From NCBI GenBank assembly GCA_041653695.1, contig JBAZEV010000002.1, positions 1-50,528 of the forward strand: a DNA stretch of 50,528 nucleotides, read 5' to 3'. Shown piece after piece: positions 961 to 42,227 of this stretch (positions are counted from its first letter, which is position 1; each line of letters opens with the position of its first letter). Made by a program: the position numbers and the translations under genes. The notes under the pieces were generated by a model that was given only the letters and a program-made list of their open reading frames with translations, was not told the DNA's origin and did not search any database. The DNA is from Candidatus Bathyarchaeia archaeon. Lineage in GTDB: Archaea; Thermoproteota; Bathyarchaeia; Bathyarchaeales; Bathyarchaeaceae.

Positions 961-1227
961 CTCTGGAATTTGTTTTTATTGGGGAACCTGTGGTTGTATT
1001 AATCGTATAATTTAGAGTTGTCTAATTTATACGCAATTATGGTTTAAAAATAAATTTCACTGGAAAAAATGTGCTTTTAGCTGAATGCTTCCACATTATA
1101 TTGAATCATTGCACCTTTTTTGGAAAAAAGCATAAATAGTGCCTGCCTTCCTAACTTAAACCACATCGTGATCGAGAACCAAATTTTTGGTACTCGCCAC
1201 GAGGCAAAAAACAAAAAAGTGAAAAAA

Positions 1228-4200
1228 ATGCAAAACAAAAAAAACCTCTATTCAGTAATAACTATCGCAATTTTAATTTCAATATTAGCAACTTCTTCAA
1301 TTGTTTACGGTGCAACAATAAACAACTATAACCCAAATGAAGGTACAGTAACAACCACATCTCCCACTTACATGACTTCAGACAATAGCGCATATGCAGC
1401 ATCTGCTGAGTATGGCAACTTATTGAATGAAGCTTATGGCTGGGAGAACCCACACGGTGGTAACATATACAGAACTGGTTTCAACGCAGGACCTGCGCCT
1501 GATAGGCCAGATGTCCTTTTCAAGACATCAAGCGGGTTAGCTATTCCTAAAGTGTTCCTTGGTAGTACACAAGCAACGGATGTAGTAAACCCGTTTGTGA
1601 ACACATTCAGCAGTCCTTCTCCTATCGCAATGGCTGGACAAATAATTCTTTGGGGAAGCATCAGAGTAAACTCTGGTAACTCTACCGCAAGAAACGCTGT
1701 AATCTCAATTAACCCACACACTGGTGCATGCAACTGGGCATCCATCATCGGATATGGACCAACCACTGGTGCAACTAGCGGTTCTAGCATGGCAGGCGCC
1801 GGATACATGTTCAAAGTTGATGATACTCACTTTGCAACAGTTTCTGGTGGACTCTCAATGTTCAGAATTACTGGTGAATTCCTGTGGCGTGATTCTACCG
1901 TTAACCCCAATGCAGTCTATCACAGTATTCTGGGTGTTGGTGAACCAGTCCAAATGGTTTTTGGACCCCACAGTGTCTCTGGTCAATATGTTCCAACCTG
2001 TAGTGGCTGGACCGTAGAAAACCCAGAAACAGACATGGGTGAAGGAAACCGCAAAGTCTTCGATTATATCATGGACGAACCTGGAAACCCAATGCTCAGT
2101 TATGGTGATGGCAAGTTATTGATGGGATCTTACAGCAGTTGTTCAGTATACGCTATTGATATCGCAACAGGTGACAAAGTCTGGGAAACATTCGTAGAAA
2201 CTGCCATGGGTTACATGACCTCCTTTGGTGATGGCAAATTCTTCATCGGAACTCAAAGCATGCACATCTATGCATTGGATTCCGAGGATGGTTCAGTTAT
2301 ATGGCACAATACTGATGGTGTTCGTAACCGAGCATTCAACGTATGGTGCATTAACTACGCCTATGGAAACATCTACCTACACGACCTAGGTTTCGCACGA
2401 ACTGGTGCAGAAAAATGTCTTGACGCTGAAACAGGTAAAATGCTATGGGCATCAACCGCACTCTTTAGCATCGGCTACTACTCAACAGTAGTTGCAGATG
2501 GCAAAGTCTACGGTAACCAAGCAGACGGCTCAACCACAACTGGACGTGAAGCAGACCCAACAGCATTCGCTTGCTGGGATGCATTCACCGGTGAAGTCCT
2601 ATGGAAAGTGAACCAAGCTATTAGCAGCCCAGTAATTGCTTATGGTTGCCTCTACTTCGTGAGTAGTAGCCAATTATGGGCAATGAGCACTGCAGTAGCA
2701 CCCGAAGACTTCAGCATGTGGCGCGGAAGTGTTGAAACACCTAGCGTTGTACTTAGCAAAGGACCTAGTGACATTAGCACTCCTAAATGGGTCTTCACCA
2801 CTGGTGCAGCTGTTATCTCCTCTCCAGTAATATCTGACGGCAAACTATACATCACCTCATGTGACCGCAACGTTTACTGCTTAAACGCATATTCTGGCGA
2901 AGAAATCTGGACATTCCTGACAAACCAACCAAAAATGACCACCTTTGGTAGCACACCTGCCGTAGTAAACGGCAAGGTCGTTGTTGGTCCTGACGACGGC
3001 AACCTATACATCCTAGACGCAGACGACGGCTCAGTACTCAGCACTGTACCTATGGGCACCTACAGACCTGTAGAAGCTTCATTAGGTCAACACAACATCC
3101 GCTCAAGCCCAGTAATCTACAACAACAACATCTACGTAGGCTCACAACACAACGGAATGCTATACTGTGTCTCCCTTAACGGACAAGTACAATGGTCAAC
3201 AGTAATCGCTGACGGCGCACCAATTCTTGGCTCTGTCGGCATTGCTGATAACTACATCTACGTAATGGGTGATGACACAAACTTCTACAAACTTGACATG
3301 AACGGAAACATCATCATGAACTTCCCCATTTCCACCAGTGGAGATAGCTTCTGGTCAGGTTTCTGGGGTGTCAACTCCTATTCGCCAACAATTGACGGTG
3401 ACAGACTATGGCCTGGTGGTACTAACAACAAATTCCGATGCTACAACATAACCGACGGCTCATTAATCTATGAAGGAACTCAACCAAACGTCGCAGGTGA
3501 AACCTCTCACGGTTCATTGCTATATGTGCCAAGCACAGTATTGACTAGCACGGTTAACCAAACATCAGGCGCCACTGTTTCAGGTTCAGGCGGCTTTATC
3601 ATAAGCCAAGCTGGACCTACAGTAGCATGTGCACGCGCTGACAATGGTCTAAACGTCTGGTCTGCTTGGGGTGGCTGGGAAGTTTGGAGTTCACCACTCT
3701 TCGCAGGTATTGGCTCTAGTGCAGTTGTCTACTTTGGTTCTGACAGCTACAGCATTACTGCCCTTGATGCAGCAACTGGAGCACCACTCAGCTGGTACAC
3801 AACTGGTGGTAACATCGTTGGCTCCGCAGCAGTTTGGGATGGTAAGCTATACGTTGGCTCATACGACAACAAAGTCTACTGCTTCGAAGACCACGCAACA
3901 CAAGAGATGACTATCTCTGCTTCAGTTGACACTAACGCAGCTAACGTAGACCAAGACATCACTGTAACTGCTACTCTTACTGGCGTTCCACAAATTGATG
4001 ACATCTACAGCGAAATTGGTGCACCTGCTCCAATTCCACCAATGCCCGACACTGAAATCCTAGTGACATACACTAACCCAGAAGACGTCGAAGCTGAACT
4101 ATCTGCAGTAACCGACAAAACTGGAACCGCAACAGTAACCTTCACAGCTGACATGGCCGGCACATGGAAAGTAATCGCATGGTATATGGGTGAAGATGGA

Positions 4201-4656
4201 CCCGTTTCATCACGCACATATGCATTCAGCGATGAACTAACCCTAAGTGTATCTGAAGGAGAATTACCATCTGCAGAAACATTGATTGCAACTGTTACTC
4301 CTGCAACAACAACACTGAAGCTTGGCGAATCTGTAGTTCTTACAGCTTCTACATCCGGTGGAACAGCTGGCTTCACATACAAGTGGTACCAAATAATCAG
4401 CGGTACTCCTGTTGTGATGTCTGGTGAAACGGCATCAACATTGTTGGTGGCGCCAACCGCAGAAGGAACATATGGATACTATGTTGAAGTAACAGATGCA
4501 GCCGGACAAGTAGATTCAACAGACACTGCACAAGTCAAAATGGGCACAGCAGAAGCCGCAGGCATACCAATGGAATATATCTACGCTATAATCGCTGTCA
4601 TTGCAATCGTCATAATCGTTATCGTAGCATACATGTTGCTGAAAAAGCGCAAATAA
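1228..4656 (+). CDS. cell-surface PQQ-like beta-propeller repeat protein with Ig-like C-terminal domains and a C-terminal TM anchor (paralog 1)
   Basis: ATG at 1228 gives MQNKKNLYSVITIAILISILATSS, a signal/anchor sequence. The body has many (D)GKLY/GKVY...G..Y.LD propeller repeats. The protein ends IPMEYIYAIIAVIAIVIIVIVAYMLLKKRK. The TTG at 1120 in the ORF track only adds a non-hydrophobic leader. Confidence 0.85.
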   Translation: MQNKKNLYSVITIAILISILATSSIVYGATINNYNPNEGTVTTTSPTYMTSDNSAYAASAEYGNLLNEAYGWENPHGGNIYRTGFNAGPAPDRPDVLFKTSSGLAIPKVFLGSTQATDVVNPFVNTFSSPSPIAMAGQIILWGSIRVNSGNSTARNAVISINPHTGACNWASIIGYGPTTGATSGSSMAGAGYMFKVDDTHFATVSGGLSMFRITGEFLWRDSTVNPNAVYHSILGVGEPVQMVFGPHSVSGQYVPTCSGWTVENPETDMGEGNRKVFDYIMDEPGNPMLSYGDGKLLMGSYSSCSVYAIDIATGDKVWETFVETAMGYMTSFGDGKFFIGTQSMHIYALDSEDGSVIWHNTDGVRNRAFNVWCINYAYGNIYLHDLGFARTGAEKCLDAETGKMLWASTALFSIGYYSTVVADGKVYGNQADGSTTTGREADPTAFACWDAFTGEVLWKVNQAISSPVIAYGCLYFVSSSQLWAMSTAVAPEDFSMWRGSVETPSVVLSKGPSDISTPKWVFTTGAAVISSPVISDGKLYITSCDRNVYCLNAYSGEEIWTFLTNQPKMTTFGSTPAVVNGKVVVGPDDGNLYILDADDGSVLSTVPMGTYRPVEASLGQHNIRSSPVIYNNNIYVGSQHNGMLYCVSLNGQVQWSTVIADGAPILGSVGIADNYIYVMGDDTNFYKLDMNGNIIMNFPISTSGDSFWSGFWGVNSYSPTIDGDRLWPGGTNNKFRCYNITDGSLIYEGTQPNVAGETSHGSLLYVPSTVLTSTVNQTSGATVSGSGGFIISQAGPTVACARADNGLNVWSAWGGWEVWSSPLFAGIGSSAVVYFGSDSYSITALDAATGAPLSWYTTGGNIVGSAAVWDGKLYVGSYDNKVYCFEDHATQEMTISASVDTNAANVDQDITVTATLTGVPQIDDIYSEIGAPAPIPPMPDTEILVTYTNPEDVEAELSAVTDKTGTATVTFTADMAGTWKVIAWYMGEDGPVSSRTYAFSDELTLSVSEGELPSAETLIATVTPATTTLKLGESVVLTASTSGGTAGFTYKWYQIISGTPVVMSGETASTLLVAPTAEGTYGYYVEVTDAAGQVDSTDTAQVKMGTAEAAGIPMEYIYAIIAVIAIVIIVIVAYMLLKKRK

Positions 4657-4680: not shown

Positions 4681-4935
4681 AGAAAAAAATTAGTAACGGC
4701 GAAAGAAAAACTGAGTGCTGAGAAGGCTTTGGGACGAGTCCGTATTTGATCACAACGGGGGCGAAGGTTTTTGAGGTTTTTACTCCTTCCCTTTTACGCT
4801 CATCTCATTGCCTCAGCAAAACTCTAGTTTTCGCCTAGGAATAACAAACAAAACAAGTTTGCCCTATAAAAATCTGCTTCCTTTCTCCGCTTTACACTTT
4901 TTTAGCTAATTATTATCAAAAATACTTGAAAGGGA

Positions 4936-5159
4936 TGGTGGGGCCGGCCGGAATTGAACCGACGACCTTTACCCGAAACAGATCATTTTCTGTCCCTACG
5001 GGTTTCTCCTCGCTCCAGAATTTCGTCATCCCATATTCTGGTCAGCAAACCCTTGCTTATTTCTGGAGCCCTTAACGGTTGGCACCGTTTGCCGGTACGA
5101 CTATCGTCATCCCTTTCTAGCGCCCGTCAAAAGACAAGGCGTGGCTAGACTACGGCCCC
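4936..5159 (-). tRNA. tRNA-Trp (anticodon CCA at 5066-5064) with about 147 nt of intervening sequence, modelled as five exons and four introns; CCA end encoded
   Basis: The reverse complement starts GGGGCCGUAGUCUAGCC. It ends AGGUCGUCGGUUCAAUUCCGGCCGGCCCCACCA, giving a 7-bp acceptor stem, a canonical T arm and A73. Predicted exons are 5159-5143, 5114-5103, 5071-5063, 5003-4998 and 4968-4936. Confidence 0.85.
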
Positions 5160-5184: not shown

Positions 5185-5192
5185 AATATATA
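5185..5192 (-). promoter_or_regulatory. TATA box for the tRNA-Trp gene
   Basis: TATATATT on the minus strand is centred about 29 nt upstream of tRNA position 1 (5159). Confidence 0.45.
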
Positions 5193-5247: not shown

Positions 5248-5368
5248 GATTGCCGGCCATAGGGCGTGGGATCCACCTGATCCCATTCCGAACTCAGAAG
5301 TTAAACCATGCTCCGTTTCCGGTGCTAGTGTGGTCTTCGGCCACGTGAACCCGGGAAAGCTGGCAATC
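5248..5368 (+). rRNA. 5S ribosomal RNA, not linked to a 16S/23S operon in this window
   Basis: The sequence contains GAUUGCCGGCCAUAGGGCGUGGGAUCCACCUGAUCCCAUUCCGAACUCAGAAGUUAAAC...GGGAAAGCUGGCAAUC. Helix 1 closes between 5248-5257 and 5359-5368, and the CCGAAC / AGUUAAGC-like loop motifs are conserved. Confidence 0.92.
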
Positions 5369-5492
5369 ACTTCTACCTTTTACGTTATTTTTTGTAAATA
5401 TTTTCTGTGTAATTTTACCTTTGATTAGTATTTCTTGAAAATACTCAAAACTTATTACCAACTATGCTGTCTTTGAGTTTGTGTGACTATTG

Positions 5493-6614
5493 ATGAATAC
5501 GATACTTGCAGGACTTTTTGCTGGCGGAGACAATATTGTTTCATGGATTATTCAGTTTGCCTTTATGGGTGTCTTTATTGTTTTCATGTTTTATGGTCAA
5601 CGTTTCCAAATGATGGTGATGATCAGAGACGTTGAAACTAGTCTGAGACGCCTTAAACTCATGAAAGATGATGGCCGAAAAATTGCGTTAGAAACAATAA
5701 AGGAAATAGGTAAACCAGTTGGAGACCCCGCAGAACGGGTTGACCAGTTTTTGGAATATATCGCGATTACTCCGCAGGATATGGATCCTTCAGGTATTGT
5801 CTGGAAGTTGGAGCATGTTCTTGACGTTCAAGAGGCCCGCTTCAAAGATGAAGTTAAATTGATGGCCCCTGAAGCCGATGAAACTCAGTTGAATAACATA
5901 GAAAACACGTTAGAAGCTGCGATGGCACTTCATATGATTTACAAGGTCATACGGCACTTCTATTTGTTGGGCAAAAAAACTATGAGCTTGTATGTTATAA
6001 TGCAGGTTCAGATGGTTTTGCCTCTTATCATGCAACAAGCGGACGCATATTCACAAGCCTTACGTGCATTTGCTCTTGGTCAACCAATCGGTGACGGAGC
6101 TGGGCCATTAGTTGCCGCTAAACTCATGCAGGGCCATGAAACACGCGAAGTAGCCCGAGATGTTGTAGCAGCAACAATCGACATTGAAGGTCGAACTGTT
6201 CATGTTTTGAAGGCAACCGGTCCAGGTGGAAACGTTGGGAAACCAGGCGACGGAATCGTTCAACTGATAAAAGAGAAAAAAGGCAAAATCGCCACAATCA
6301 TAATGGTTGATGCTGCGCTTAAGCTTGAAGGCGAAAAACCTGGTGAAGTTGCAGAGGGTGTAGGTGCAGCTATTGGTGGTCCTGGTGTTGAGCAGTTCAA
6401 AATCGAGGATGAGATACTAAAATACAAGATTCCGATAAACGCTGTTATCGTGAAACAAGACCTTGGCGACGCCGTTTCTCCTATGCGTAAAGAAATCTTC
6501 GAAGCAGCAGACCCTGTAATTGAACGAATAAAACGTTTGATTCTTGAACGCACCCAAAAAGGTGATGACATCATTATAGCTGGAATCGGTAACTCGATAG
6601 GTATTGGGCAGTAG
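5493..6614 (+). CDS. conserved archaeal membrane-anchored protein of unknown function (DUF1512-like)
   Basis: Long ORF with an N-terminal TM helix (IIQFAFMGVFIVFMFYG) and a soluble GPGGNVGKPGDG...AIGGPGVEQF region. The family assignment is from memory only. Confidence 0.45.
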   Translation: MNTILAGLFAGGDNIVSWIIQFAFMGVFIVFMFYGQRFQMMVMIRDVETSLRRLKLMKDDGRKIALETIKEIGKPVGDPAERVDQFLEYIAITPQDMDPSGIVWKLEHVLDVQEARFKDEVKLMAPEADETQLNNIENTLEAAMALHMIYKVIRHFYLLGKKTMSLYVIMQVQMVLPLIMQQADAYSQALRAFALGQPIGDGAGPLVAAKLMQGHETREVARDVVAATIDIEGRTVHVLKATGPGGNVGKPGDGIVQLIKEKKGKIATIIMVDAALKLEGEKPGEVAEGVGAAIGGPGVEQFKIEDEILKYKIPINAVIVKQDLGDAVSPMRKEIFEAADPVIERIKRLILERTQKGDDIIIAGIGNSIGIGQ

Positions 6615-8071: not shown

Positions 8072-9184
8072 TTGACTACTGCTGAAGACAAAAAATCTGT
8101 GCTTGACCCATGGGGAACAACTGTGGTTGACGACTACAATCACCTTTACGAAGAATTCGGCATACAAAAATTTGATTCCCTAATCCCAGAGATACCCGAA
8201 CCAAGCATGTACATGCGACGCGGCGTTATCTTCGGGCACAGAGACTTTGAACGCATCATTGCCACAATGAAACAAGGCGGAGATTTTGCTGTAATGAGCG
8301 GCATTAAACCAACCGGTGAATTCCATCTAGGAACCCTGATGACCGCCAAAGAAATCATTTATTTCCAGCAACAAGGCGCCCAAGCGTTTTACGCCATCGC
8401 AGACATAGAAGCCTACGAGGACAACAGGTTATCTTTTGAAGAAACAGAAAAAATAGCCGTTGGAAACGTGGCAGACCTTTTGGCGTTAGGTTTTGACCCA
8501 AAAAAAGGTCACATTTACAGGCAGTACAAAGAGATGCGTGTAAGAAATTTGGCGGTTCACTTTGGTGCGGGCGTAACATTAGCCACAATGAAAGCCATCT
8601 ACGGTGAACGCCATATTGGGCTTTATCTTTCAGCTTTGATTCAAGCAGGAGACATACTGTTGCCACAACTCAAAGATTTTGGTGGACCAAAACCAACAGT
8701 TGTTCCCGTAGGCGTAGACCAAGATGCACATCTTCGTTTGACAAGGGATTTAGCGAGTAAGTTTCATAAGAAATTCAAGTTTGTTCCACCGTCTTCGACG
8801 TATCACAAGATTTTGAAGGGATTGGACGGTTCGCCGAAGATGTCTAAACGAAACCCCATGAGTTACTTTACTCTTAACGAGACTCCAAAAGCTATTGGAA
8901 AAAAGATTGCCAGTGCATTCACTGGCGGCAGAGCAACCGTTGAAGAACAAAAACAGCTTGGTGGTGTGCCAGAAGTTTGCCCTGTTTACGAAATTGAGAT
9001 GTGCCACTTTGTTCAAGACGACAAACAGGTAGTTGAAACCTACAATTGCTGCAAATGTGGAAGTCTACTGTGTGGCGAGCATAAAGCGCGAACAAAACAG
9101 ATTGTCATGAACTTCGTTGAAGAGCATCAAAGGAAACGGGAAAAACTTGTTGACCAAGCACGCGAAATACTGGGCGTCAACTGA
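8072..9184 (+). CDS. trpS: tryptophan--tRNA ligase
   Basis: Class I motifs PTGEFHLGTL (HIGH) and KMSKRNP (KMSKS) are present. The archaeal TrpRS-type N-terminus DPWGTTVVDDY is present, and the C-terminal segment is Cys-rich. Confidence 0.9.
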   Translation: MTTAEDKKSVLDPWGTTVVDDYNHLYEEFGIQKFDSLIPEIPEPSMYMRRGVIFGHRDFERIIATMKQGGDFAVMSGIKPTGEFHLGTLMTAKEIIYFQQQGAQAFYAIADIEAYEDNRLSFEETEKIAVGNVADLLALGFDPKKGHIYRQYKEMRVRNLAVHFGAGVTLATMKAIYGERHIGLYLSALIQAGDILLPQLKDFGGPKPTVVPVGVDQDAHLRLTRDLASKFHKKFKFVPPSSTYHKILKGLDGSPKMSKRNPMSYFTLNETPKAIGKKIASAFTGGRATVEEQKQLGGVPEVCPVYEIEMCHFVQDDKQVVETYNCCKCGSLLCGEHKARTKQIVMNFVEEHQRKREKLVDQAREILGVN

Positions 9185-9299: not shown

Positions 9300-10808
9300 T
9301 TGGTGGCTGAACTTCGGGAAAATGAACAAAAAACGTTGCTTGCCCTACAAACATTGAAGGGAAAAGCACCCGTAGAGTTGATAGTGGATGCAAGCGGTTT
9401 GGCTCATGCCGGTGTTATGCGGGCGGTTCTTTTTCTTACTGAAAATAAGTTAATCACAACACATGAACAAAAACAGACAATAGTAAAGTTAACCGAAGAA
9501 GGCAACTACCACGCAAATAAAGGGCTTCCAGAACGGCGTCTTTTTAATTCATTGACCAAACTTGGCGGAGAAGCAAAAGTAAACTCCGTTGTAGCGGATG
9601 CATGTTTGGATAAACAGTTTGTTTCTGTTGCATTGGGCTGGCTGAGCCGTAAAGGCTGGGCAAAAATCGAGCAAGGGGCGCTTAAACCGTTGCAGACGCC
9701 TTCGCTTGGTGGCGACGAAAAACTGTTGCAGTTGTTGGCTGAAAAAAGTCCTTTAATCGTTGAGGACCTAAATGCCGAACTGCAAGACAGTGTTTCTGTT
9801 CTGAAGGGACGAACCCTTGTGGATGTTGAAGAGAAAACCCTACGTGAACTTGAGTTAACCCCTGACGGTTGGGCGTTAGTGAAAAAGGGGATTACTGTTC
9901 AAGAAGAGATAAGCCAGTTAACCCCCGAGCTTATCCGAACTGGAAACTGGCGGAACGTAAAACTGCGCCGTTTTGATGTAACCGCACCCGGTCCAGTAAG
10001 CTACCCAGGAAAGATACACCCTGTTCAGCAGATAATTCAACAGGTTAAAGAAATCTTTTTGGAGATGGGTTTCACCGAAATCAGAGGCGACATGGTTGAA
10101 ACCGCCTTTTGGAATTTCGATGCGCTGTTTCAGCCTCAAGACCACCCCGCACGCGACATGGTGGATACTTTTTATTTGTCTAACCCACAACAGGGTGAAT
10201 TACCCGAAAAAGCTGTTGTTGATGCCGTAGCCCAGACCCACGAAAATGGTTGGATAACAGGTTCCCGTGGATGGCAGTATTCTTGGAGTGCACAAGAAGC
10301 AAAGAAACTGGTGCTCCGAACGCACACGACTGCTGCTACTATCCGTTACTTGACTGAGCATAAGGAATCGCCAATCAAGGTGTTCTCTGTTGACCGTGTT
10401 TACCGCAACGAGAAACTGGACTACAAGCATCTTGCCGAGTTCCATCAAATTGAAGGAATAATTATGGACCAAAAAGTCACGTTGCGGGATTTGATGGGCA
10501 CCCTGAAAGAGTTTTACCAAAAACTTGGCTTAGAAAAAGTACAGTTTTGGCCCAGCTACTTCCCGTATACTGAGCCCTCTTTGCAGTCCACTGTGTATGT
10601 TCCAGAACTAAATAATTGGGTTGAACTCTGTGGTATGGGAATCTTCCGCCCAGAAGTTTTGGCTCCATTGGGTGTGAAACACCCTGTTTTGGCTTGGGGT
10701 GGCGGTTTGGAACGTTTGATACTTCTTAAACTGCACCTTGACGACATCCGGTTACTGTATAAGAACGATTTAGGTTGGATAAGGAGGAATCCAGTATGCC
10801 AACTATAA
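9300..10808 (+). CDS. pheS: phenylalanine--tRNA ligase alpha subunit
   Basis: Class II core motifs FQPQDHPARD, VLRTHTT and GMGIFRPEV...AWGGGLERL are present, with an archaeal N-terminal winged-helix repeat region. Confidence 0.92.
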   Translation: MVAELRENEQKTLLALQTLKGKAPVELIVDASGLAHAGVMRAVLFLTENKLITTHEQKQTIVKLTEEGNYHANKGLPERRLFNSLTKLGGEAKVNSVVADACLDKQFVSVALGWLSRKGWAKIEQGALKPLQTPSLGGDEKLLQLLAEKSPLIVEDLNAELQDSVSVLKGRTLVDVEEKTLRELELTPDGWALVKKGITVQEEISQLTPELIRTGNWRNVKLRRFDVTAPGPVSYPGKIHPVQQIIQQVKEIFLEMGFTEIRGDMVETAFWNFDALFQPQDHPARDMVDTFYLSNPQQGELPEKAVVDAVAQTHENGWITGSRGWQYSWSAQEAKKLVLRTHTTAATIRYLTEHKESPIKVFSVDRVYRNEKLDYKHLAEFHQIEGIIMDQKVTLRDLMGTLKEFYQKLGLEKVQFWPSYFPYTEPSLQSTVYVPELNNWVELCGMGIFRPEVLAPLGVKHPVLAWGGGLERLILLKLHLDDIRLLYKNDLGWIRRNPVCQL

Positions 10809-12466
10809 CTTTGAACCAAAAACGTTTCAGTTCCTACGTTGGATGCGACATATCCGTGGAAGTAATGGCTAAATGGCTTCCGTGGTTGGGTACAGACACC
10901 GAAGACGTCGGCGAAGACTACGTGAAAATTGAGTATAACCCAAACCGTGTAGATTTTTGTAGCTACAGCGGTATTGCCCGTGCACTTCAGGGTCTAATGG
11001 GCTGGAAAACAGGGTTGCCCAATTTTGAGGTTAAAACAGGTAACATCGTATTGACTGTCGATAAAACCGTAGCCAAAGTGCGTCCTTACATTGTTTCCGC
11101 TGTTGTCCGAGACTTACCAATCGACCATGAGAGCATACGGGAACTCATGGAAATGCAAGAAGCCTTGCACTGGATGATAGGCAGAGACCGAAAAAAGGCG
11201 TCGATTGGTGTGCACAATTTAGATGCGGTGGAACCGCCTTTCTGTTACACGACTTGTGCTCCGGATGGAATCAAGTTTATTCCGTTGGATAGAACAGAAC
11301 CTATGACTCCGCAGGATGTTTTGGAAAAACACGATAAAGGAATTGCATACAAAAACGAGGTTGACTGGGCTTCCCGGTATCCAATACTGGTTGACCGAAA
11401 ACAGCAGGTTCTGTCGTTTCCGCCAATAATCAACGGCGAATTAACACGCGTAGTCGAAGATACAAAAAACCTGTTCATTGACGTTACTGGCACAGAGCTA
11501 AACGCGGTACAAAGAAGCCTGAACGTTCTAGTTACTGCATTGGCTGACATGGGCGGTAAAATAGAAACGGTCCGGGTTGAGTACCCTGACCAAGTTTTGG
11601 TTACTCCCAACCTTACGCCACAAAAAATGAAGCTTCATGTGGCTTTTTCTAATAACCGTTTAGGTCTTGACTTCTCAGAAACCCAGACTATTGAGGCCTT
11701 GCAAAAGTCGCGGCTTGACGCAAAAACGGTTGAAGCAGGAGTTTTAGATGTTACAATTCCTGCTTACCGAACAGATATACTGCATGAAATTGATTTGGTT
11801 GAAGAAGTCGCTGTCGGTTACGGTGTTTTCAGGTTAGAACCCACAATACCCGCAACAGTTACCACGGGCAAACCACATAAAGTCACTGAGGTAGCATCTG
11901 CGGTTCGTCAGATTATGGTTGGTTTAGGTTTTACTGAAGCCCTGAACTTTGTTTTAACCAACCAAGTTGACCACTACCAGAAGATGCGTCAAGAACCAGA
12001 ACAGCTTGTTACTTTGGCGAACCCTGTTTCAACTGATTACTCGATTATACGAAACAACATACTGCCCAGCTTGATGAACAACTTGGCTGTAAGCAAACAC
12101 CACGTTTTTCCACAACGAATGTTCGAGGTCTCTGATGTTATCAAACTTGACCCAACCTCTGAAACCTATACACAGCGAAGAATACACCTTGCCGCAGTTT
12201 CGTCACATCCCACTGCAAACTTTACTGAAATAAAATCGGTTCTTGAATCGTTGCTAATGAACCTGGGATTCAAAGACTGGACAATGAAAGAAACTGACCA
12301 CCCAAGTTTTCTAGAAGGACGCGCAGCAGCAGTCATGCTGGCGGACATGGAGTTAGGTTTTGTCGGAGAAATTCACCCCGAAGTTTTGAACAACTTTGAA
12401 CTGGAAAACCCAACAGGGGCATTCGAAATAGACCTGCAAAAAATCGTTGACTCTGCGTCTTGTTAG
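10796..12466 (+). CDS. pheT: phenylalanine--tRNA ligase beta subunit
   Basis: MPTITLNQKRF begins at an ATG that overlaps the pheS stop by 13 nt. B3/4 and B5 domain-like sequence and a typical archaeal PheT C-terminus are present. Confidence 0.9.
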   Translation: MPTITLNQKRFSSYVGCDISVEVMAKWLPWLGTDTEDVGEDYVKIEYNPNRVDFCSYSGIARALQGLMGWKTGLPNFEVKTGNIVLTVDKTVAKVRPYIVSAVVRDLPIDHESIRELMEMQEALHWMIGRDRKKASIGVHNLDAVEPPFCYTTCAPDGIKFIPLDRTEPMTPQDVLEKHDKGIAYKNEVDWASRYPILVDRKQQVLSFPPIINGELTRVVEDTKNLFIDVTGTELNAVQRSLNVLVTALADMGGKIETVRVEYPDQVLVTPNLTPQKMKLHVAFSNNRLGLDFSETQTIEALQKSRLDAKTVEAGVLDVTIPAYRTDILHEIDLVEEVAVGYGVFRLEPTIPATVTTGKPHKVTEVASAVRQIMVGLGFTEALNFVLTNQVDHYQKMRQEPEQLVTLANPVSTDYSIIRNNILPSLMNNLAVSKHHVFPQRMFEVSDVIKLDPTSETYTQRRIHLAAVSSHPTANFTEIKSVLESLLMNLGFKDWTMKETDHPSFLEGRAAAVMLADMELGFVGEIHPEVLNNFELENPTGAFEIDLQKIVDSASC

Positions 12467-13862: not shown

Positions 13863-14948
13863 TTGGACCTGCAAAAAAGAATCGACTTGGTAATGAAGAA
13901 CACCGCCGAAGTAGTAACACCAGAAGAGTTACGAACATTACTTGAAACAAACAACAACCCCCGCGCCTACTGGGGCTTTGAATGCTCAGGACTATTGCAC
14001 ATCGGAATTGGGTTAGTTTGTTCAGCAAAAATCAAACATTTGGTAAACGCTGGTTTTGATTACACAATCTTTCTGGCAGACTGGCACTCGTTGATAAACA
14101 ACAAACTAGGTGGAAACATGGAAAACATCCACACCTGCGGAGAATACCTTAAACAAATCTTTGTTGCCCTAGGTTTAACACCAGACAAAGTAACATACCG
14201 CTGGGCCTCAGACATAACCGCTAAAGTTGATTTCTGGGAAAAAGTCATCCGCATCGCCAAAAGCGTTTCAATCAAACGAACATGGCGAGCATTACCCGTT
14301 ATGGGTCGTGAAACCAGCCTAACCGACATGGAAACCGCGTGGGTATTCTATCCCTGTATGCAAGCGGCAGACATCTTTGAACTGGGAATGGATGTTGCCT
14401 GCGCAGGAATAGACCAACGAAAAGCGCATATGCTCGCTCGGGATGCTGCGGAAAAACTCAAATGGCAAAAACCTGTTTGCGTTCACACACCATTGCTTAT
14501 TGGGTTGCAAGGTGCACAAACAACAGAAAAACAGTTCGACGAAAACGCGGAACTAAACGTTGAAATCAGCTCAAAAATGTCCAAGAGCATACCTCAAAGC
14601 AGCATACTGGTTCATGATTCACCTGAAGATATTGCATCAAAAATCAAAAACGCGTACTGCCCACAAAAAGTAGTAAAAAACAACCCCATTTTGGAGTTAG
14701 CGAAACTCATAATTTTCGCAGAAAAAGACATGCTGGAAATACCGCGCCCCGCAAAATATGGTGGTCCAGAAGTTTTTGGAAGCTTTGAGAACCTAGCAAA
14801 CGTTTACAGTGAAGGCAAAATCCATCCCTTAGACTTAAAGAATGGCGTAGCTAACGCGTTAATCGAAATACTTGAACCCGTTCGTGAACACTTCAAAAAG
14901 CATCCAGAAACGCTAGAAAAAATGTTGAAAATCGAGATAACTAGGTAA
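13863..14948 (+). CDS. tyrS: tyrosine--tRNA ligase (archaeal type)
   Basis: Collinear with the M. jannaschii TyrRS pattern: GFECSGLLHIG, IDQRKAHMLARD, KMSKS, NPILELAK and HPLDLKNGVA. TTG start. Confidence 0.9.
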   Translation: MDLQKRIDLVMKNTAEVVTPEELRTLLETNNNPRAYWGFECSGLLHIGIGLVCSAKIKHLVNAGFDYTIFLADWHSLINNKLGGNMENIHTCGEYLKQIFVALGLTPDKVTYRWASDITAKVDFWEKVIRIAKSVSIKRTWRALPVMGRETSLTDMETAWVFYPCMQAADIFELGMDVACAGIDQRKAHMLARDAAEKLKWQKPVCVHTPLLIGLQGAQTTEKQFDENAELNVEISSKMSKSIPQSSILVHDSPEDIASKIKNAYCPQKVVKNNPILELAKLIIFAEKDMLEIPRPAKYGGPEVFGSFENLANVYSEGKIHPLDLKNGVANALIEILEPVREHFKKHPETLEKMLKIEITR

Positions 14949-16928: not shown

Positions 16929-19790
16929 TTGAAAGAATCAACTCATTTGCACCCAATTTTTTCGACAATTATTGTAATCATTCTAATCTCAACGATTCTT
17001 TTAACCTCAACAATATATGTTAACGCAAATTCCATTGTTACCCCTGAAGATGGTTACGGCGATTTAATGCAGTACCCAAACTTGGACCCGATTGGAACTA
17101 ACCCCGAACGCACAAGTTACAACGCTGGACCTGCACCCGATACTCCAGAACTATTATGGCAATCTGATGTCACTGCGCCTGAAATTAGTTTGGTAAGCAG
17201 TGGACTTGGAGCCGCCTATTTGGTTGCTGATGGAAAATTTTTCTGTCGTGAATCAGGTTTTGGCGCAAACACCATCTATGCACTTGATGCCATAACTGGT
17301 AGACTGGAATGGGCAACTGACCTGCCTGATGGTGTAACGTTAAGCGGTTTCTTTGGTGGAGACGCTGTGTACCGGATTGATGATACCCATATCGTAACTG
17401 AAGCATCCACCGGACTTGCATGTTTTAACTCGGTTACTGGAAGACTCCTGTGGGTTAACTCCAATGTTACTTCGGGCGGTTCTTTTGCTTATTTCCCATT
17501 TATTGTAGTTCCTGAACTGCATATGTTCTACCGCCAAAATACGCCAGTTGGTGCATATACTATCGATTTAGTTGGTTACGACACATCAAATGCAGACCAA
17601 TGTTTCACTGAAGTTTGGAGATACACCAAGGTTGCCGCGGGGTCCTCTCCGTTATGTTATGGTGACGGAAAAATCTTTGAAAGCTCGACTGGTGACATGG
17701 AAGTTTACGCGTTGGATGCTCTTGATGGCACATTGCTGTGGGAAACACAGGCCAAAAACAGCTTAGGATATGCGGCTTCTTACAGTAACGGAAAACTGTA
17801 TGTAGCCTCAGAGTCGCAGTCACTTACCGTATATGATGCAGAAAACGGAAACGTTTTACGTGAATGGGTCGCCTCAGACCGACCTTTTATGTCCTATACC
17901 GGTGCAGTAGCCTACGGCAGAGTGTATCGTCACGTTCTTGCTGTTCCATCCAGTTATTTTGCTTGTTGGGATGCCGAAACACTGGAACTTTTATGGACCG
18001 CACCCACCTCATATTATATTGGATATTTCCAGTCTGTGGTTGCTGATGGAAAAGTCTATGTTACACAAAGTGAAGCTTCAGATTTAGTTCCTGCTAGTTT
18101 TGCATGCTACGACGCCTTTACTGGACAAAAACTCTGGGATATACCAAAATATTTTGCAAACCCTGCTGTTGCTTATGGAAACCTGTACCTAGTAGCTGAC
18201 GGAATAATATCCTGTTACAGTAACGTCAATCAACCTGCTGGCAAGTCTCCCCAACCGTGGTCTAACTGGCTTGGCAACCCTGAACAACCCGGCGTAGTTG
18301 TTGGAGAGTCTGCACCCAAAAGCATCTCATCTCCCAGATGGTCATATGAAACCGGCGGTGCCGTAACCGGTGGAATAGCTGTTGCTGATGGTAAAGTCTA
18401 CGCGGGATCAAGAGATCAATACCTATACTGCATTGACGCCTATGATGGTAGCTTCATCTGGAAGTTTGAAACCGGATTTAAGTTGCATTCTGGTCCAGCG
18501 GTTGTTAGTGGCCGAGTGTACCTTGGTCCAGACGATGGAAACATTTACTGCTTAGACGCAAATAGCGGTGATGTCATATGGACAACACCTGCAGGCGGAT
18601 TCATACCATACACTAGTGGTCTTGCATATCAAGCACGGTCTTCACCAATCATTGTTGGTGGCAGTCTTTATGTGGGGTCACTTGATGGGAAGCTGTATTG
18701 CCTTAACATCAATGATGGTTCAGTAGATTGGACGTATCAAACAGGTGCTCCAATTACGACTTCTCCAACTGTTTCTCATGGAGTAGTTTACATCGGCGCA
18801 GACAACCAAGTAAAAGCGATATCTGCAACAACAGGGAACCTTCTATGGTCTGCACCTTACAACATAGGAGCCAGAAGTCCACTGGTTGTTGGTAACACAG
18901 TTTACATCACTGTTCAAGTCAGTGTGAGCTTCTTTGTGTCTAATCATTATCTTATTGCTTTAGACGGTTCTGCATATGGTGCACAGCTATGGAACACTTC
19001 TATCAGCGCACAAATTATGGGTCATGGAAACACCGCATATGCAATGACCTACTATGATAGCGTAATTTACACTCCTGCAGGAGCACAAGTAGCTGCTTAC
19101 TCTGCATTGACTGGAGAAAACATATGGTCCAAATTCCTAGGATTTCTAATATACCCTGCTGTAACCGTTGCAGATGACCCAACAGGAACAAAAGTTTACG
19201 TTGGCTCAGATTCTTACTCGATTACTTGCATTGATGCGATAACTGGTGAATCAATTTCGTGGTTCACTACTCAGGGACAAGTTGAATGTGTCCCCGCAGT
19301 TTACGACAGCAGACTTTACGTTGGTTCTGCTGACCATAAAATCTACTGTTTCTATGATGACCCAACTGCACAGATGGCTGCTACTGTAGCTGTTGATAAA
19401 ACTGATGTTGACTTAGGTGACTCTGTAACTGTTTCTGCACAATTGGTTCCAGGGCTTCCTAATGCTTCGATGATTGTTACCTTCACTGACCCCGATGGCG
19501 TTGAAACAAATTTGGATGCTGTAGCAGACAACATGGGATTTGCTACAGTTACTTATAGTCCCAAGGCTGAGGGCAACTGGACCGTAATAGCATGGTATGA
19601 AGGGGCTCAATATACTGGAATAAAATACAGTAACGCCTTCAGTGGGCAGATTACTCTGGAAGTAGTCGACACCACGCCGCCAGTCCCAGATGACAGTGTA
19701 CCCCTAGAATACATTTACGCTGCAATCGGCGTCATTGCCACATTGATTATCATAGTTGTTGCATATATGTTCCTTAAAAAACGGAAATAA
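16929..19790 (+). CDS. cell-surface PQQ-like beta-propeller repeat protein with an Ig-like domain and a C-terminal TM anchor (paralog 2)
   Basis: N-terminal anchor IFSTIIVIILISTILLTS and the shared motif YNAGPAPDTPELLW are present, together with propeller repeats. The protein ends VPLEYIYAAIGVIATLIIIVVAYMFLKKRK. Confidence 0.85.
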   Translation: MKESTHLHPIFSTIIVIILISTILLTSTIYVNANSIVTPEDGYGDLMQYPNLDPIGTNPERTSYNAGPAPDTPELLWQSDVTAPEISLVSSGLGAAYLVADGKFFCRESGFGANTIYALDAITGRLEWATDLPDGVTLSGFFGGDAVYRIDDTHIVTEASTGLACFNSVTGRLLWVNSNVTSGGSFAYFPFIVVPELHMFYRQNTPVGAYTIDLVGYDTSNADQCFTEVWRYTKVAAGSSPLCYGDGKIFESSTGDMEVYALDALDGTLLWETQAKNSLGYAASYSNGKLYVASESQSLTVYDAENGNVLREWVASDRPFMSYTGAVAYGRVYRHVLAVPSSYFACWDAETLELLWTAPTSYYIGYFQSVVADGKVYVTQSEASDLVPASFACYDAFTGQKLWDIPKYFANPAVAYGNLYLVADGIISCYSNVNQPAGKSPQPWSNWLGNPEQPGVVVGESAPKSISSPRWSYETGGAVTGGIAVADGKVYAGSRDQYLYCIDAYDGSFIWKFETGFKLHSGPAVVSGRVYLGPDDGNIYCLDANSGDVIWTTPAGGFIPYTSGLAYQARSSPIIVGGSLYVGSLDGKLYCLNINDGSVDWTYQTGAPITTSPTVSHGVVYIGADNQVKAISATTGNLLWSAPYNIGARSPLVVGNTVYITVQVSVSFFVSNHYLIALDGSAYGAQLWNTSISAQIMGHGNTAYAMTYYDSVIYTPAGAQVAAYSALTGENIWSKFLGFLIYPAVTVADDPTGTKVYVGSDSYSITCIDAITGESISWFTTQGQVECVPAVYDSRLYVGSADHKIYCFYDDPTAQMAATVAVDKTDVDLGDSVTVSAQLVPGLPNASMIVTFTDPDGVETNLDAVADNMGFATVTYSPKAEGNWTVIAWYEGAQYTGIKYSNAFSGQITLEVVDTTPPVPDDSVPLEYIYAAIGVIATLIIIVVAYMFLKKRK

Positions 19791-19941: not shown

Positions 19942-21021
19942 TTGAAGATTCTGTGTTTAGACCTCAAAAAGGGTATTGCAAAGGTTATGCCCGAAACTTT
20001 AGATGACCTTTGGCATTTGTATAACATAATTTTAGAAAAAGATGAGGTTCACGCTCGTACAACTCGGCAAACAAAAACGGATGAACAGTATGCGCGGTCA
20101 ACTCGAGCTAAAAGAGTTCCAGTTAACCTTGGTTTGACTGTTGATAAAATGTATTGGGACCGAACTCTTAATCGTTTAAGAGTAAACGGAATCGTATGCG
20201 AAGCACCAGAAAACCTGAGCATAAAAGGGTCTAGGCATACAATTAACATAACCATAAACAAACCCGTCACGATAATTAAGAAAAAATGGCTCAAACTTCA
20301 CCTTGACCGTTTACAAAAAGCAAGCAAAATTACTTCTGCGCCGCTTACAATAATTTCGATTGACGACGAAGAATACTGCGTCGCACTTTTACGTGAATAT
20401 GGAATTGAAGTAAAGTCTGGCGCAAGAACTAAACTTCCTGGAAAATTTGAAGCAGAGAAAAGAACAAAAGCAAAACAAGAATTTTTCATAGACGCATTAA
20501 AAGCACTCAGGGAAGCATGGATGCCTTTGCACAGCCAAATTGTTGTTCTTGGACCTGGCTATATCAAGGACGATTTTGCTGATTACGTAAAAGACACCGC
20601 CAAAGATGTTGCCTCATCCATTTCAGGCGTAAAAGGCACAAACAGTGCAGGTTTATCGGGAATAAATGAATCGCTTCGTTCAGGTATCCTTTCTAACGTT
20701 TTGGAACACATACGCGTGGCAGAAGAAATGAACGTCATGGAAGAGTTTCTAGCGCGACTAGGACGCGGAAAAGAAGACGCAACTTATGGCTTTGATGACG
20801 TTGAACGTGCAACAAATTATGGTGCTGTTGAAAAACTGCTAGTTGCAGATTCGACCCTACGTGAAACCACAGACGAAAAACGTGTAGCGTTGGAAACACT
20901 CATGAAAAATGTTGAAGACACCCGCGGAGAAATCTTGGTAATCAGCACAGAGAATGAAGCTGGAACACAGTTGCTCTCGTTAGGTGGACTTGCTGCGTTG
21001 CTCCGTTTTCCGTTGACTTGA
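19942..21021 (+). CDS. pelA: Pelota (aRF1-related mRNA surveillance / ribosome rescue factor)
   Basis: The TTG start gives MKILCLDLKKGIAKVMPETLDDLWHLYNII. The eRF1-like central and C-terminal domains are recognisable. Confidence 0.88.
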   Translation: MKILCLDLKKGIAKVMPETLDDLWHLYNIILEKDEVHARTTRQTKTDEQYARSTRAKRVPVNLGLTVDKMYWDRTLNRLRVNGIVCEAPENLSIKGSRHTINITINKPVTIIKKKWLKLHLDRLQKASKITSAPLTIISIDDEEYCVALLREYGIEVKSGARTKLPGKFEAEKRTKAKQEFFIDALKALREAWMPLHSQIVVLGPGYIKDDFADYVKDTAKDVASSISGVKGTNSAGLSGINESLRSGILSNVLEHIRVAEEMNVMEEFLARLGRGKEDATYGFDDVERATNYGAVEKLLVADSTLRETTDEKRVALETLMKNVEDTRGEILVISTENEAGTQLLSLGGLAALLRFPLT

Positions 21022-24760: not shown

Positions 24761-25753
24761 TTACTGCAGTTTTATTGACTGCTTAAAGACTTCAACATCT
24801 ATTTTTCCGGCTCGGAATGTTTTTCCGCTTTTTGCGTTGTTAATCACAAAAATTGCTGGAGCAAACAATCCGGGGTCAATCTTGTAGAAGTCGTAGTCTG
24901 CTTCTTTGAATATGTCCATAAACGGTTTACCGTAACCCTTAGACTTTGAAGCAGGTGCCTTCTCAAGCAATGCTTTGATTTCTTCGTCTTCAGCATTTAT
25001 TGTGTAATATGCAGTACCAGCGTAGATTATGGCGTCGTTGGTTCGTCCCATAGCTTGAGCAACTTTAGGGTGAACCGGTGCAATAGGTGCGTACCCGCAA
25101 CCGTGTGTTACTACTTTGGGGTCAAGTCCCAGTTCCGTGAGTTTATGCAATCCAGTTTCAACGATTCTTCCAGAAATCTGAACCGAACCCGCAACACATG
25201 TAGTAGGCACAAGAACCAAAACCAGATTCTTTGGGTCAACGTTGCATGCAGAGGAAATCTTTGTTATTGCTTCCTCTGGTGGTTCAGTGGATGTTTCCAG
25301 AACAAGAACTGCAACATCTGAGGTATCTTTGTAATCAATTTTTTCGTACAACTCTTTTGGCTTTAACGATATTGCCCGCGCTGGACCAGAACCCATTGCA
25401 GTGTATTTGTCGGCTTTGATTTGCCAACCCGCAAACTGAGAACCCAAAGTCGATATTGCTGGGTAATCTGTGTGAACGATAATGGATGGCAGGTCTAGGT
25501 CTTCATAGTTTTTGTAGGCTATCTGGGCTGTTCCCAATCCGCCAAGGCAGATTTCTGTAATTATTTTTCCCGCAGCATAACCGCCTTTGACTTCAATTCC
25601 TGCGTCAATCAATGTTGCACCAGACACAGATTCTTTGACTGCAACACAGTACTCTTTGGCGTTGTCACAGAGCTCTTTTGCAAGATTGTATGCTAGTTGG
25701 TTAACACACACTTTAGTTGTCAACTGTATTTGGCCCCTTTTTTTATTCTTCAT
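24761..25753 (-). CDS. mch: methenyltetrahydromethanopterin cyclohydrolase
   Basis: The length and the pattern VNQLAYNLAKEL...GATLIDAGIEVKGGYAAGKIITEICLGGLG are typical of Mch. The gene overlaps the fwdC stop by 11 nt. Confidence 0.85.
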   Translation of the reverse strand: MKNKKRGQIQLTTKVCVNQLAYNLAKELCDNAKEYCVAVKESVSGATLIDAGIEVKGGYAAGKIITEICLGGLGTAQIAYKNYEDLDLPSIIVHTDYPAISTLGSQFAGWQIKADKYTAMGSGPARAISLKPKELYEKIDYKDTSDVAVLVLETSTEPPEEAITKISSACNVDPKNLVLVLVPTTCVAGSVQISGRIVETGLHKLTELGLDPKVVTHGCGYAPIAPVHPKVAQAMGRTNDAIIYAGTAYYTINAEDEEIKALLEKAPASKSKGYGKPFMDIFKEADYDFYKIDPGLFAPAIFVINNAKSGKTFRAGKIDVEVFKQSIKLQ

Positions 25754-26567
25754 CCAAGTACTTTTCGTAGGTGCTTAACTGTGCATTGTTTGCCTTGGAA
25801 ACAAACAGTTTTCCTTTTCCATCCGTAGCATTGTCACCCGAAAATACATAGAATGGACCTGCAACCTTCTCGCTTTCAGCTTTAACTGATGCTTTGATTT
25901 CTTCAATCGAGAACGATGGTAAGACGTCTTCGGTTGGTCCAACGAGAATTATTTTTCCGTTAGTCATATGTCCACCGGCTCTTCGGGCTGATTCTCCTAG
26001 AACAAGGATTGTTCCATTTCTCATGTGAACACCAGCGAATAATCCAACGCTTCCCATTACTTTGATGAACCCGTTTCTCATGTAGTTGCCAATTTCGTGA
26101 CCTGCATTTCCGTGGATAATGATTGTTCCACCATTCATTCCTTTGTCGCTTCCACGGTATGCTGAGCCAATGTAATCTCCTGCATCGCCGTTGATTTCGA
26201 TGGTTCCGCCTTTCATCTGTGAGCCAGCCCATGAACCAGCATTGCCAGTGACAATAATTGAGCCGCCTTTCATTTCTTCACCAACGTGCATGCCAACATC
26301 ACCGTCGACAATTATTTGTCCCTTGGTCATTTGTGCGCCGATGTTTCGAACTTTACTTGCGTTTCCTTTGATGTTTATTATGACTTCTTCCGTGGTTGTG
26401 TTGTCTGCTTTTATTTCAAAAAGGTCGCCTAGTGTTAGTTTGCGGTTTCCTTCCCATGCTTCTAGTTCTGCGATTTCTTTGACTGATTTACCTGCAAAGA
26501 TGTCAGGGGTTATACTTTTTCCTTCAATTGGATATCTGGAAAAATATTTTGGAACTAAAGTAACCAT
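25743..26567 (-). CDS. fwdC: formylmethanofuran dehydrogenase subunit C
   Basis: Repeated G-x-x-G-x-x-M-x-G-G beta-helix units are present (GNAGSWAGSQMKGGTIEINGDAGDYIGSAYRG and similar). Confidence 0.88.
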   Translation of the reverse strand: MVTLVPKYFSRYPIEGKSITPDIFAGKSVKEIAELEAWEGNRKLTLGDLFEIKADNTTTEEVIINIKGNASKVRNIGAQMTKGQIIVDGDVGMHVGEEMKGGSIIVTGNAGSWAGSQMKGGTIEINGDAGDYIGSAYRGSDKGMNGGTIIIHGNAGHEIGNYMRNGFIKVMGSVGLFAGVHMRNGTILVLGESARRAGGHMTNGKIILVGPTEDVLPSFSIEEIKASVKAESEKVAGPFYVFSGDNATDGKGKLFVSKANNAQLSTYEKYLDEE

Positions 26568-26570
26568 TTT

Positions 26571-28262: not shown

Positions 28263-28276
28263 TTCTCGTTTCCCTC

Positions 28277-41915: not shown

Positions 41916-42227
41916 CTGTTTACACCCATTTGTTACGAATCGCCAATGAGAGACCGAATGTACATTGACCCACTTTAATCATACCGTCCATGTGCCGTCA
42001 GAGATTATTTACTTTTCGGTTTAAATGCAATCCTATAATGCTTTTAAGTTCAACAATGAACGAGCCAAAAAGGCCGTATCATGAGCATGCACTGAAAACG
42101 TTGTTTTTTTCAAAACAAAGAACTAAAAAACCATAACATCTAAAAGTATAAATGACGCTGAGAACATCAACAAATAGTTCCAGACCTGTTTCGAATTGGG
42201 ATGAAACAAAACTAATTGGAGCAAAAA

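Follow-up and report, generated by a model that had tools for sequence, protein, structure and literature searches.

A tRNA-Trp(CCA) gene with four predicted bulge-helix-bulge introns in the Bathyarchaeia

Introduction

According to reviews, no archaeal tRNA gene carries more than three introns (PMC4033280; PMC8450103). Multiple-intron tRNA genes occur in the Thermoproteales, where, for example, tRNA-Pro(UGG) of Pyrobaculum islandicum is interrupted at positions 25/26, 37/38 and 56/57 (Sugahara et al. 2007/2008, according to the summaries in PMC4090602 and PMC4033280). The subject of this work is a 224-nt locus on the minus strand (positions 4936–5159) of a 50,528-nt stretch of DNA from Candidatus Bathyarchaeia archaeon (assembly GCA_041653695.1, contig JBAZEV010000002.1, positions 1 to 50,528), hereafter the window. 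The locus is very probably a functional tRNA-Trp(CCA) gene, from an archaeon near Candidatus Bathyarchaeum, with four bulge-helix-bulge (BHB) introns. Like the Thermoproteales genes, it combines a canonical intron at 37/38 with non-canonical introns and uses relaxed HBh’/hBH motifs, and its introns lie so close together that one motif would await the removal of another intron, as in PMC8450103. It differs in having four introns, where at most three are reported for the Thermoproteales, and in its lineage, the Bathyarchaeia, with a G+C content of 37–47% in the window.

Four introns per tRNA gene have also been tabulated for Asgard archaea. Supplementary Data 4 of Valentin-Alvarado et al. 2024 (PMC11291895) contains columns for a fourth intron, with tRNA-Arg(TCT) and tRNA-Ile2(CAT) of Freyarchaeia having four introns by both methods, and the 231-nt tRNA-Trp(CCA) gene of Atabeyarchaeia, similar in length to the 224-nt gene in the window, having three by tRNAscan-SE and four by R2DT. 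These cases belong to a different phylum and are table rows, for which no comparative or structural validation was found. A sequence-only reading of the window had held that multi-intron tRNA genes, known from the Thermoproteales and relatives, carry up to three introns, which agrees with the reviews but is outdated given the tabulated Asgard genes. It had also called four introns and a 6-nt exon unusual; this stands in so far as the number exceeds the maximum of the reviews and the exon is slightly shorter than the 8–9 nt exons derivable from the Asgard table, but not against the four-intron tRNAs tabulated for Asgard archaea or the presence of the same gene in many public Bathyarchaeia genomes. 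Since Asgard four-intron tRNAs are tabulated and the tRNA-Trp gene described here is present with four introns in dozens of public Bathyarchaeia assemblies, the locus sets no new upper limit. It represents neither a new intron maximum nor a new mechanism, four-intron tRNAs having been tabulated for Asgard archaea in 2024. What it does indicate is that multi-intron tRNA genes, four-intron ones included, extend to the Bathyarchaeia, which are among the most abundant sediment archaea. Searches of the literature brought up no relevant paper on tRNA introns in Bathyarchaeia or Bathyarchaeum.

Results and discussion

Exon-intron structure and the predicted mature tRNA

The sequence of the minus strand from 5159 to 4936 was confirmed base for base, and all exon and intron coordinates and lengths of the sequence-only reading were reproduced. 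The extent of the 224-nt gene, which encodes its own CCA end, is based on the sequence, ARAGORN analysis of the spliced product, a covariance match described below and 50 orthologues that align over the full length. Exon 1 (5143–5159, 17 nt) supplies tRNA positions 1–17, with the 5’ strand of the acceptor stem, U8 and A9, the 5’ strand of the D stem and the first bases of the D loop, and is followed by intron 1 (5115–5142, 28 nt), located in the D loop at 17/17a. Exon 2 (5103–5114, 12 nt) covers 17a–28, comprising G18 and G19, the 3’ strand of the D stem, G26, A27 and U28, and intron 2 (5072–5102, 31 nt) then splits the anticodon stem at 28/29. Exon 3 (5063–5071, 9 nt) spans G29–G37 and includes the anticodon CCA at 5066–5064. 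Intron 3 (5004–5062, 59 nt) occupies the canonical site 37/38. The hexamer ACCCGU (A38–U43), the 3’ strand of the anticodon stem, forms exon 4 (4998–5003, 6 nt) and is separated by intron 4 (4969–4997, 29 nt, at 43/44) from exon 5 (4936–4968, 33 nt), which carries the variable loop, the T arm, the 3’ strand of the acceptor stem, A73 and CCA.

Excision of the four introns (5142–5115, 5102–5072, 5062–5004 and 4997–4969) joins exons of 17, 12, 9, 6 and 33 nt into a 77-nt product, identified by ARAGORN as tRNA-Trp(cca) with a normal cloverleaf. The acceptor stem has 7 bp, the D arm contains a single U13-U22 mismatch, and the anticodon stem, which carries the loop CUCCAGA, and the T stem have 5 bp each. 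A canonical tRNA upon excision is one of the features expected of BHB-type introns in pre-tRNAs, and the product is colinear with orthologues that have fewer introns. The gene also falls within the definition of a multiple-intron gene, namely at least two BHB introns of which at least one is non-canonical, the sites here being 17/17a, 28/29, 37/38 and 43/44. At minimum energy the mature 77-mer adopts a fold other than the cloverleaf (–33.9 versus –28.3 kcal/mol), which is common among tRNAs and was not counted against the gene. Flanking the gene on the same strand, a TATA-like box TATATATT (5185–5192), with a purine-rich stretch before it, precedes the mature 5’ end by about 29 nt and is probably an archaeal promoter; a TATA-like AAACGTATATATTG was found again in the orthologue L002 (loci from other genomes are given L numbers). 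A run of five T (4918–4922), 14 nt downstream of the CCA end, is probably an archaeal oligo-T terminator.

The unspliced gene escapes standard annotation. With the introns in place, ARAGORN called no tRNA anywhere in the 50.5-kb window and the locus went unmatched by the Rfam tRNA model, the only match of any Rfam model at gathering thresholds in the window being a 5S rRNA. At relaxed thresholds, the Rfam tmRNA model matched exactly 4936–5159 on the minus strand. The tmRNA model and tRNAs have the acceptor and T arm in common, and the relaxed tmRNA, HPnc0260 and Plastid-ycf2 matches were rejected as genes, as they reflect merely the acceptor and T arm. A custom scan of both strands of the window for a T arm with a complementary acceptor stem returned this locus alone. 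The intron mode of ARAGORN proposed a tRNA-Gln with one 131-nt intron from the unspliced sequence, which was rejected as spurious because exons 2–4 form conserved islands and lie next to one another in orthologues. The gene is therefore missed entirely by routine tools (ARAGORN and the Rfam tRNA model), and genomes of Bathyarchaeia may consequently look devoid of tRNA-Trp.

Bulge-helix-bulge motifs at the four junctions

At every junction a 4-bp central helix is positioned between two 3-nt bulges. The helix pairs the four exon bases ending two before the 5’ cut with the four intron bases ending two before the 3’ cut, and all four pairs are formed at all four introns. These helices (CUAG/CUAG, GACG/CGUU, CUCC/GGAG and ACCC/GGGU for introns 1–4) and their flanking bulges had been proposed from hand folding and were recovered unchanged. 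In intron 1, exon bases C12–G15 pair with intron CUAG between bulges CC|A and AA|A; in intron 2, G23–G26 pair with CGUU between AU|A and AA|G; and in intron 4, A38–C41 pair with GGGU between GU|A and AA|A. All three are of the relaxed HBh’ form, with an inner hairpin of 8–9 bp (8–9 bp in intron 1 and 8 bp in intron 4) directly after the 5’ bulge and no real outer helix, since the outer position offers a single G-U pair at best. Intron 3 is built differently, with C32–C35 pairing to GGAG (5009–5006) between bulges AG|A and AA|A, the anticodon stem serving as outer helix and no contiguous inner helix. A flanking helix of at least 2 bp, outer or inner, as in the relaxed hBH and HBh’ forms, is accordingly present at all four introns. 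Every intron begins with A and ends with AA.

When introns were shuffled and the register held fixed, a complete central helix arose by chance in 2.2%, 0.8%, 2.2% and 0.5% of cases for introns 1–4, giving a product of 2e-8. The local motif energies for introns 1, 2 and 4 were –13.7, –10.4 and –13.1 kcal/mol, and all four motifs are compatible within one fold (–78.7 kcal/mol when enforced, compared with –90.0 kcal/mol unconstrained). Unaided, the RNAalifold consensus recovered helix 1 and reproduced motif 4 in its exact geometry.

The sequence leaves some freedom in where each intron is cut: 2, 1, 2 and 4 registers yield an identical mature RNA for introns 1–4, and the length of exon 4 depends on the BHB register, 5–9 nt being possible from sequence alone. 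Such freedom lends something to the idea that the gene is real but mapped differently, having fewer introns, junctions in other registers or an insertion retained as an expansion hairpin. The failure of folding programs to recover the motif of intron 2 and the single 131-nt intron proposed by ARAGORN point the same way. Against this, all four central pairs are obtained in the proposed register only, the sole one among those giving the same product, as the sequence-only reading had it. Hairpins of 28–31 nt retained in the D loop or anticodon stem would also be incompatible with the L-shape expected from established tRNA structure. As described in the following sections, exons 2, 3 and 4 are invariant islands, and orthologues that lack intron 1, 2 or 4 fix the junctions to within the register ambiguity, with an identical mature sequence. 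A different intron map is thus judged very unlikely.

Orthologues with one to four introns

Orthologues were sought with the 22-nt T-arm/acceptor signature in species-representative genomes and metagenome contigs. A total of 91 full-length genes were obtained from Bathyarchaeia and Thaumarchaeota, with 69 distinct sequences, and intron classes were assigned from spliced alignment to the predicted mature tRNA. One distinct sequence (L013) has a single intron, at 37/38. Ten have introns at 37/38 and 43/44 (L011 (MCG-6 AD8-1) and L027; two-intron genes also include L012 and L023), two have introns at 17/17a, 37/38 and 43/44 (L009 (CP070759) and L089), and 50 have four at the same sites as the window gene, among them L006 in the complete genome CP122380 of Candidatus Bathyarchaeum tardum M17C-01. 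Five distinct sequences from Thaumarchaeota (L021 and L033 among them) carry introns at 28/29 and 37/38, and a Thaumarchaeota gene outside this count (L028) has a third. The contig L001 (P0002) stops before the tRNA and contributed no tRNA data. The metagenome contig L118 was left out of the alignment; its apparent 264-nt five-part gene is actually a four-intron gene with a 42-nt tandem duplication, the 3’ end TCCGGGTAAAGG...CCACCA being present twice, either through an assembly artefact or a real duplication.

Across genes with one, two, three or four introns the exons remain colinear with the predicted exons, and each non-canonical junction can be seen without its intron. Where intron 1 is missing (L011, L013 and others) the sequence reads through as GTCTAGCC|AGG; where intron 2 is missing (L009 and L089) it reads GACGAC|GGGCTCCAG; and in L013, which lacks intron 4, it reads ACCCGT|AGGTCG. 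Intron 3 was found in every recovered orthologue. This read-through indicates that the insertions are discrete units at the proposed positions. Judged by its sequence, the predicted product of 77 nt is orthologous to ordinary tRNA-Trp genes. Of all the lines of evidence, this comparison of orthologues is regarded as the decisive one. The five-exon map with its 6-nt exon and the anticodon at 5066–5064, as first drawn from the window alone, is thereby supported, as it is by the exon and intron diversity and helix conservation described below. With one, two, three and four introns at fixed sites, the series is a natural experiment, and a clean one, on how introns are gained and lost and on the range of substrates that the splicing endonuclease accepts.

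The tRNA-Trp genes of Thaumarchaeota (Nitrososphaeria) share the mature frame and the 28/29 and 37/38 sites with the window gene, but have two introns (three in L028) and, unlike it, none in the D loop or at 43/44. At the six loci L021, L033, L065, L072, L098 and L028, the 28/29 intron is 14–27 nt long, starts AGU.GUACCG and ends CG(C/U)UAA, like intron 2 of the window gene. These shared ends suggest possible homology, one old intron being present in both classes, so that the Thaumarchaeota 28/29 intron may be homologous to intron 2. The third intron of L028 is an additional 47-nt insertion near position 9/10.

Conservation of exons and covariation of introns

Selection was assessed with alignment A1, which holds the 50 distinct four-intron genes. 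Variable columns number 8 of 77 in the exons compared with 88 of 152 in the introns, and pairwise diversity is 0.012 compared with 0.114, an approximately 9-fold difference (Fisher p = 8e-13); the conservation of exon 5 is partly by construction, because 22 nt of it were fixed by the search pattern. In exon 1, 16 of 17 columns are invariant. Exon 2 varies at position 28, which is U or C facing G42, and exons 3 and 4 are invariant in all 50. Among the introns, intron 3 is the most conserved.

The secondary structure was scored over the acceptor stem, the T stem, the four central helices and three inner hairpins. Standard pairs were present in 97.1% of cells, compared with 33–46% in controls in which the 3’ partner was slid by 1–3 columns, and the central helices were paired in 100, 100, 100 and 99.5% of cases. 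Nine pairs had changed on both sides, all in the inner hairpins of intron 1 (four pairs) and intron 4 (five pairs), while shuffles gave a mean of 1.7 and none of 500 reached nine. Given the close relationship of the sequences, these counts rest on few independent compensatory events. The divergent orthologue L073 has very different intron sequences and retains the same four motifs. Inspection by eye shows covariation across phyla between position 24 of the exon and the intron 2 base paired with it, with G:C in Thaumarchaeota and A:U in the window gene.

This pattern bears on the possibility that the locus is a decaying tRNA pseudogene with insertions, a functional tRNA-Trp being encoded elsewhere. 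Two observations could be cited in its favour, namely that the unspliced locus is unrecognised by ARAGORN and the Rfam tRNA model, and that the scan for another tRNA-Trp in the source genome covered the 50.5-kb window only. Decay would not be expected to leave exons nearly invariant in 50 distinct sequences beside introns that have diverged about 9-fold more, nor central helices and bulges that are invariant, nor a cloverleaf that is perfect once four segments have been excised exactly. Conservation extends to the promoter-like TATA box and to the neighbouring genes, and three chromosome-level assemblies each contain a single copy of the 22-nt 3’ signature. A pseudogene is therefore largely refuted and is regarded as extremely improbable.

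Assignment to archaeal tRNA splicing

That the four introns are removed by the EndA/RtcB route is inferred from DNA sequence. Several points count against a functional gene with four BHB introns. In the primary transcript, none of the introns conforms to the strict hBHBh’ form, in which both flanking helices have at least two Watson-Crick pairs (as defined in PMC7714728). The intron 2 motif is absent from both the RNAalifold and the RNAfold predictions, and at intron 3 both programs favour an alternative duplex, considered in the next section, over the splicing motif. The 50 four-intron sequences are closely related, with a mean column identity of 93%. Finally, no EndA domain was detected in the 36 of 41 open reading frames (ORFs) of at least 100 codons that were scanned, a scan confined to the window.

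The same absence of an EndA gene from the window, together with the relaxed form of three motifs, is what could be said for removal of the insertions without EndA and RtcB, by self-splicing or another nuclease, or for mobile mini-elements unrelated to tRNA splicing. At 28–59 nt the introns fall far below the size of group I or group II ribozymes, and all four share the A start, the AA end and the geometry of 3-nt bulge, 4-bp helix and 3-nt bulge. For mobile elements, similar copies elsewhere in the window were not seen, though the tRNA-end scan addresses this only indirectly. Either route is so improbable as to be nearly negligible beside recognition of the four BHB introns by the tRNA splicing machinery. 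According to PMC5829648, non-canonical introns and relaxed motifs require an EndA of broad specificity, of the (alpha-beta)2 or epsilon2 type.

Intron 3 as a candidate box C/D guide

In Haloferax, the tRNA-Trp intron serves as a box C/D RNA and directs the methylation of C34 and U39 (Cm34 and Um39; PMC7714728). Intron 3 of the window gene likewise lies at 37/38 of a tRNA-Trp and contains antisense stretches to the regions around positions 34 and 39, which are among the features of such a guide. The first, identified from alignment A1 at 5042–5052 of the minus strand, consists of GGGUUUG (5052–5046) followed by CUGA (5045–5042), which resembles a box D’. GGGUUU is complementary to A38–C41 and the two preceding bases, with C39 as the partner of the fifth base upstream of CUGA. 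The second, at 5012–5030 of the same strand and based on folds and the alignment, consists of GAUGACGA (5030–5023), which resembles a box C’, and UUCUGGAGC (5020–5012). The latter is complementary to G31–G37 and the first two bases of the intron, forming a 9-bp duplex with the anticodon loop that is present in both the minimum-energy fold and the RNAalifold consensus and is unchanged in all 50 sequences. The invariant blocks of the intron are GGGUUU, CUGA, AUGA.GA, UUCUGGAGC and GGAGAA, and the G between GGGUUU and CUGA is nearly invariant.

The guide intron of Haloferax volcanii pre-tRNA-Trp (Clouet d’Orval 2001 and Singh 2004, cited in PMC7714728) shares with intron 3 the 37/38 site, antisense stretches directed at the loop and at the 3’ stem strand of the anticodon arm, the fifth-base rule, which from CUGA leads to position 39, and a duplex that competes with the splicing motif. 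The two differ in length (59 nt here and 103 nt there) and at position 39, which is C in the window gene and not U. The guide assignment has further difficulties, the first two of which are also differences from the euryarchaeal intron. Of the C/D and C’/D’ box pairs of a complete guide, only one is recognisable, CUGA (5045–5042) with GAUGACGA; no terminal C and D boxes are recognisable in the intron, the D box expected for C34 reading AGGA; and the sole Rfam match to a C/D family is sR40 at 5015–5070, with 14.2 bits against a threshold of 50. Taken together, the invariant blocks, the duplexes and the euryarchaeal precedent suggest, with moderate confidence, that intron 3 is probably a reduced box C/D-type guide for 2’-O-methylation of C34 and C39.

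A 10-nt sequence, GGGAUGACGA, occurs twice on the minus strand, at 5104–5113 in exon 2 (G18–A27) and at 5023–5032 in intron 3, over the element resembling box C’. Both copies are kept in the four-intron genes, by coincidence or as a trace of intron origin. The copy in intron 3 was considered as the true D-arm exon and rejected, as the sequence downstream of it gives no anticodon arm with U33.

Proposed processing and order of splicing

The following scheme is proposed. Transcription from the TATA-type promoter would give a pre-tRNA of about 224 nt carrying four BHB-type introns. By analogy with the established archaeal pathway, EndA would cut after the second base of each 3-nt bulge and RtcB would join the five exons into the 77-nt tRNA. 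In introns 1, 2 and 4, the central helices of the relaxed HBh’ motifs would borrow exon bases that later belong to the D stem and the anticodon stem, and intron 3 would use the anticodon stem as its outer helix. Bases C39–C41 are needed both by the central helix of intron 4 (A38–C41) and by the anticodon stem, the 5’ strand of which is split by intron 2; the full motif of intron 3 would therefore form only once introns 4 and 2 are gone. The flanking relaxed introns would as a result be removed first and the canonical intron last, an order that would keep the hexamer ACCCGU from release as a free 6-nt exon. The same dependence between the motifs of closely spaced introns is described in the tRNAscan-SE 2.0 paper (PMC8450103). 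Before its removal, intron 3 would guide 2’-O-methylation of C34 and C39 as in euryarchaeal pre-tRNA-Trp.

A stronger version is that the four introns constitute an obligatory, ordered maturation cascade. Each relaxed intron would hold part of the D or anticodon stem in a non-tRNA pairing, the anticodon stem would form after their removal, and the canonical intron would leave last, having guided methylation of C34 and C39, with the hexamer never free. This is tentative and is considered rather unlikely. If it were true, the number and placement of the introns would amount to a built-in timer for folding and modification instead of neutral insertions, and the series of one to four introns in the Bathyarchaeia would be a natural system for studying the stepwise assembly of such a cascade. 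Candidatus Bathyarchaeum tardum, a relative with a complete genome, is available in culture, in which the predicted order of splicing and the predicted methylation could be put to the test.

Genomic surroundings

A stand-alone 5S rRNA gene (5249–5368, plus strand; Rfam 74.6 bits) lies 89 nt from the 5’ end of the tRNA-Trp gene in the opposite orientation, and is followed by a gene for a DUF1512 protein (5490–6614, plus strand) with named relatives from Candidatus Bathyarchaeota at 75–85% identity. The order of tRNA-Trp (minus), 5S rRNA (plus) and DUF1512 (plus) is kept in the relatives L002 and L003. About 2.9 kb from the tRNA-Trp gene is trpS (8072–9184, plus strand), matched by several NCBIfam tryptophan–tRNA ligase models, two of them above their cut-offs; this arrangement is kept in L001–L003. 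An uninterrupted tRNA-Pro(UGG) gene, with the same acceptor stem as tRNA-Trp (GGGGCCG/CGGCCCC), is present on the minus strand of L002 (1706–1783) and L003 (435–512), about 1.6 kb and 2.8 kb from the tRNA-Trp gene, respectively. No counterpart was found in the window. As this gene is uninterrupted, not all tRNA genes of the group are interrupted.

Other translation genes in the window are pheS and pheT (9300–12466), a second class-Ib synthetase (13863–14948) that is probably a tyrosyl-tRNA synthetase (TyrRS), an eRF1-family gene (19942–21021) and cysS (29990–31240, minus strand). Three ORFs are very large, with 1178 codons (1120–4656, plus strand), 953 codons (16929–19790, plus strand) and 1505 codons (37398–41915, minus strand). 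The first shows repeated motifs and a C-terminal membrane anchor when its translation is inspected by eye, and the second matches PQQ-like beta-propeller repeats. Genes of a tetrahydromethanopterin (H4MPT)-dependent C1 pathway, which are reported in Bathyarchaeia, are found at 24761–28681 (minus strand), 31365–32276 (plus strand) and 42216–43187 (plus strand) and agree with a Bathyarchaeia origin of the window. They include Mch, Ftr and a protein with the N-terminal domain of methylene-H4MPT dehydrogenase. Three further ORFs at these loci have GXGXG, amidohydrolase and molybdopterin-binding domains and are possibly subunits of formylmethanofuran dehydrogenase.

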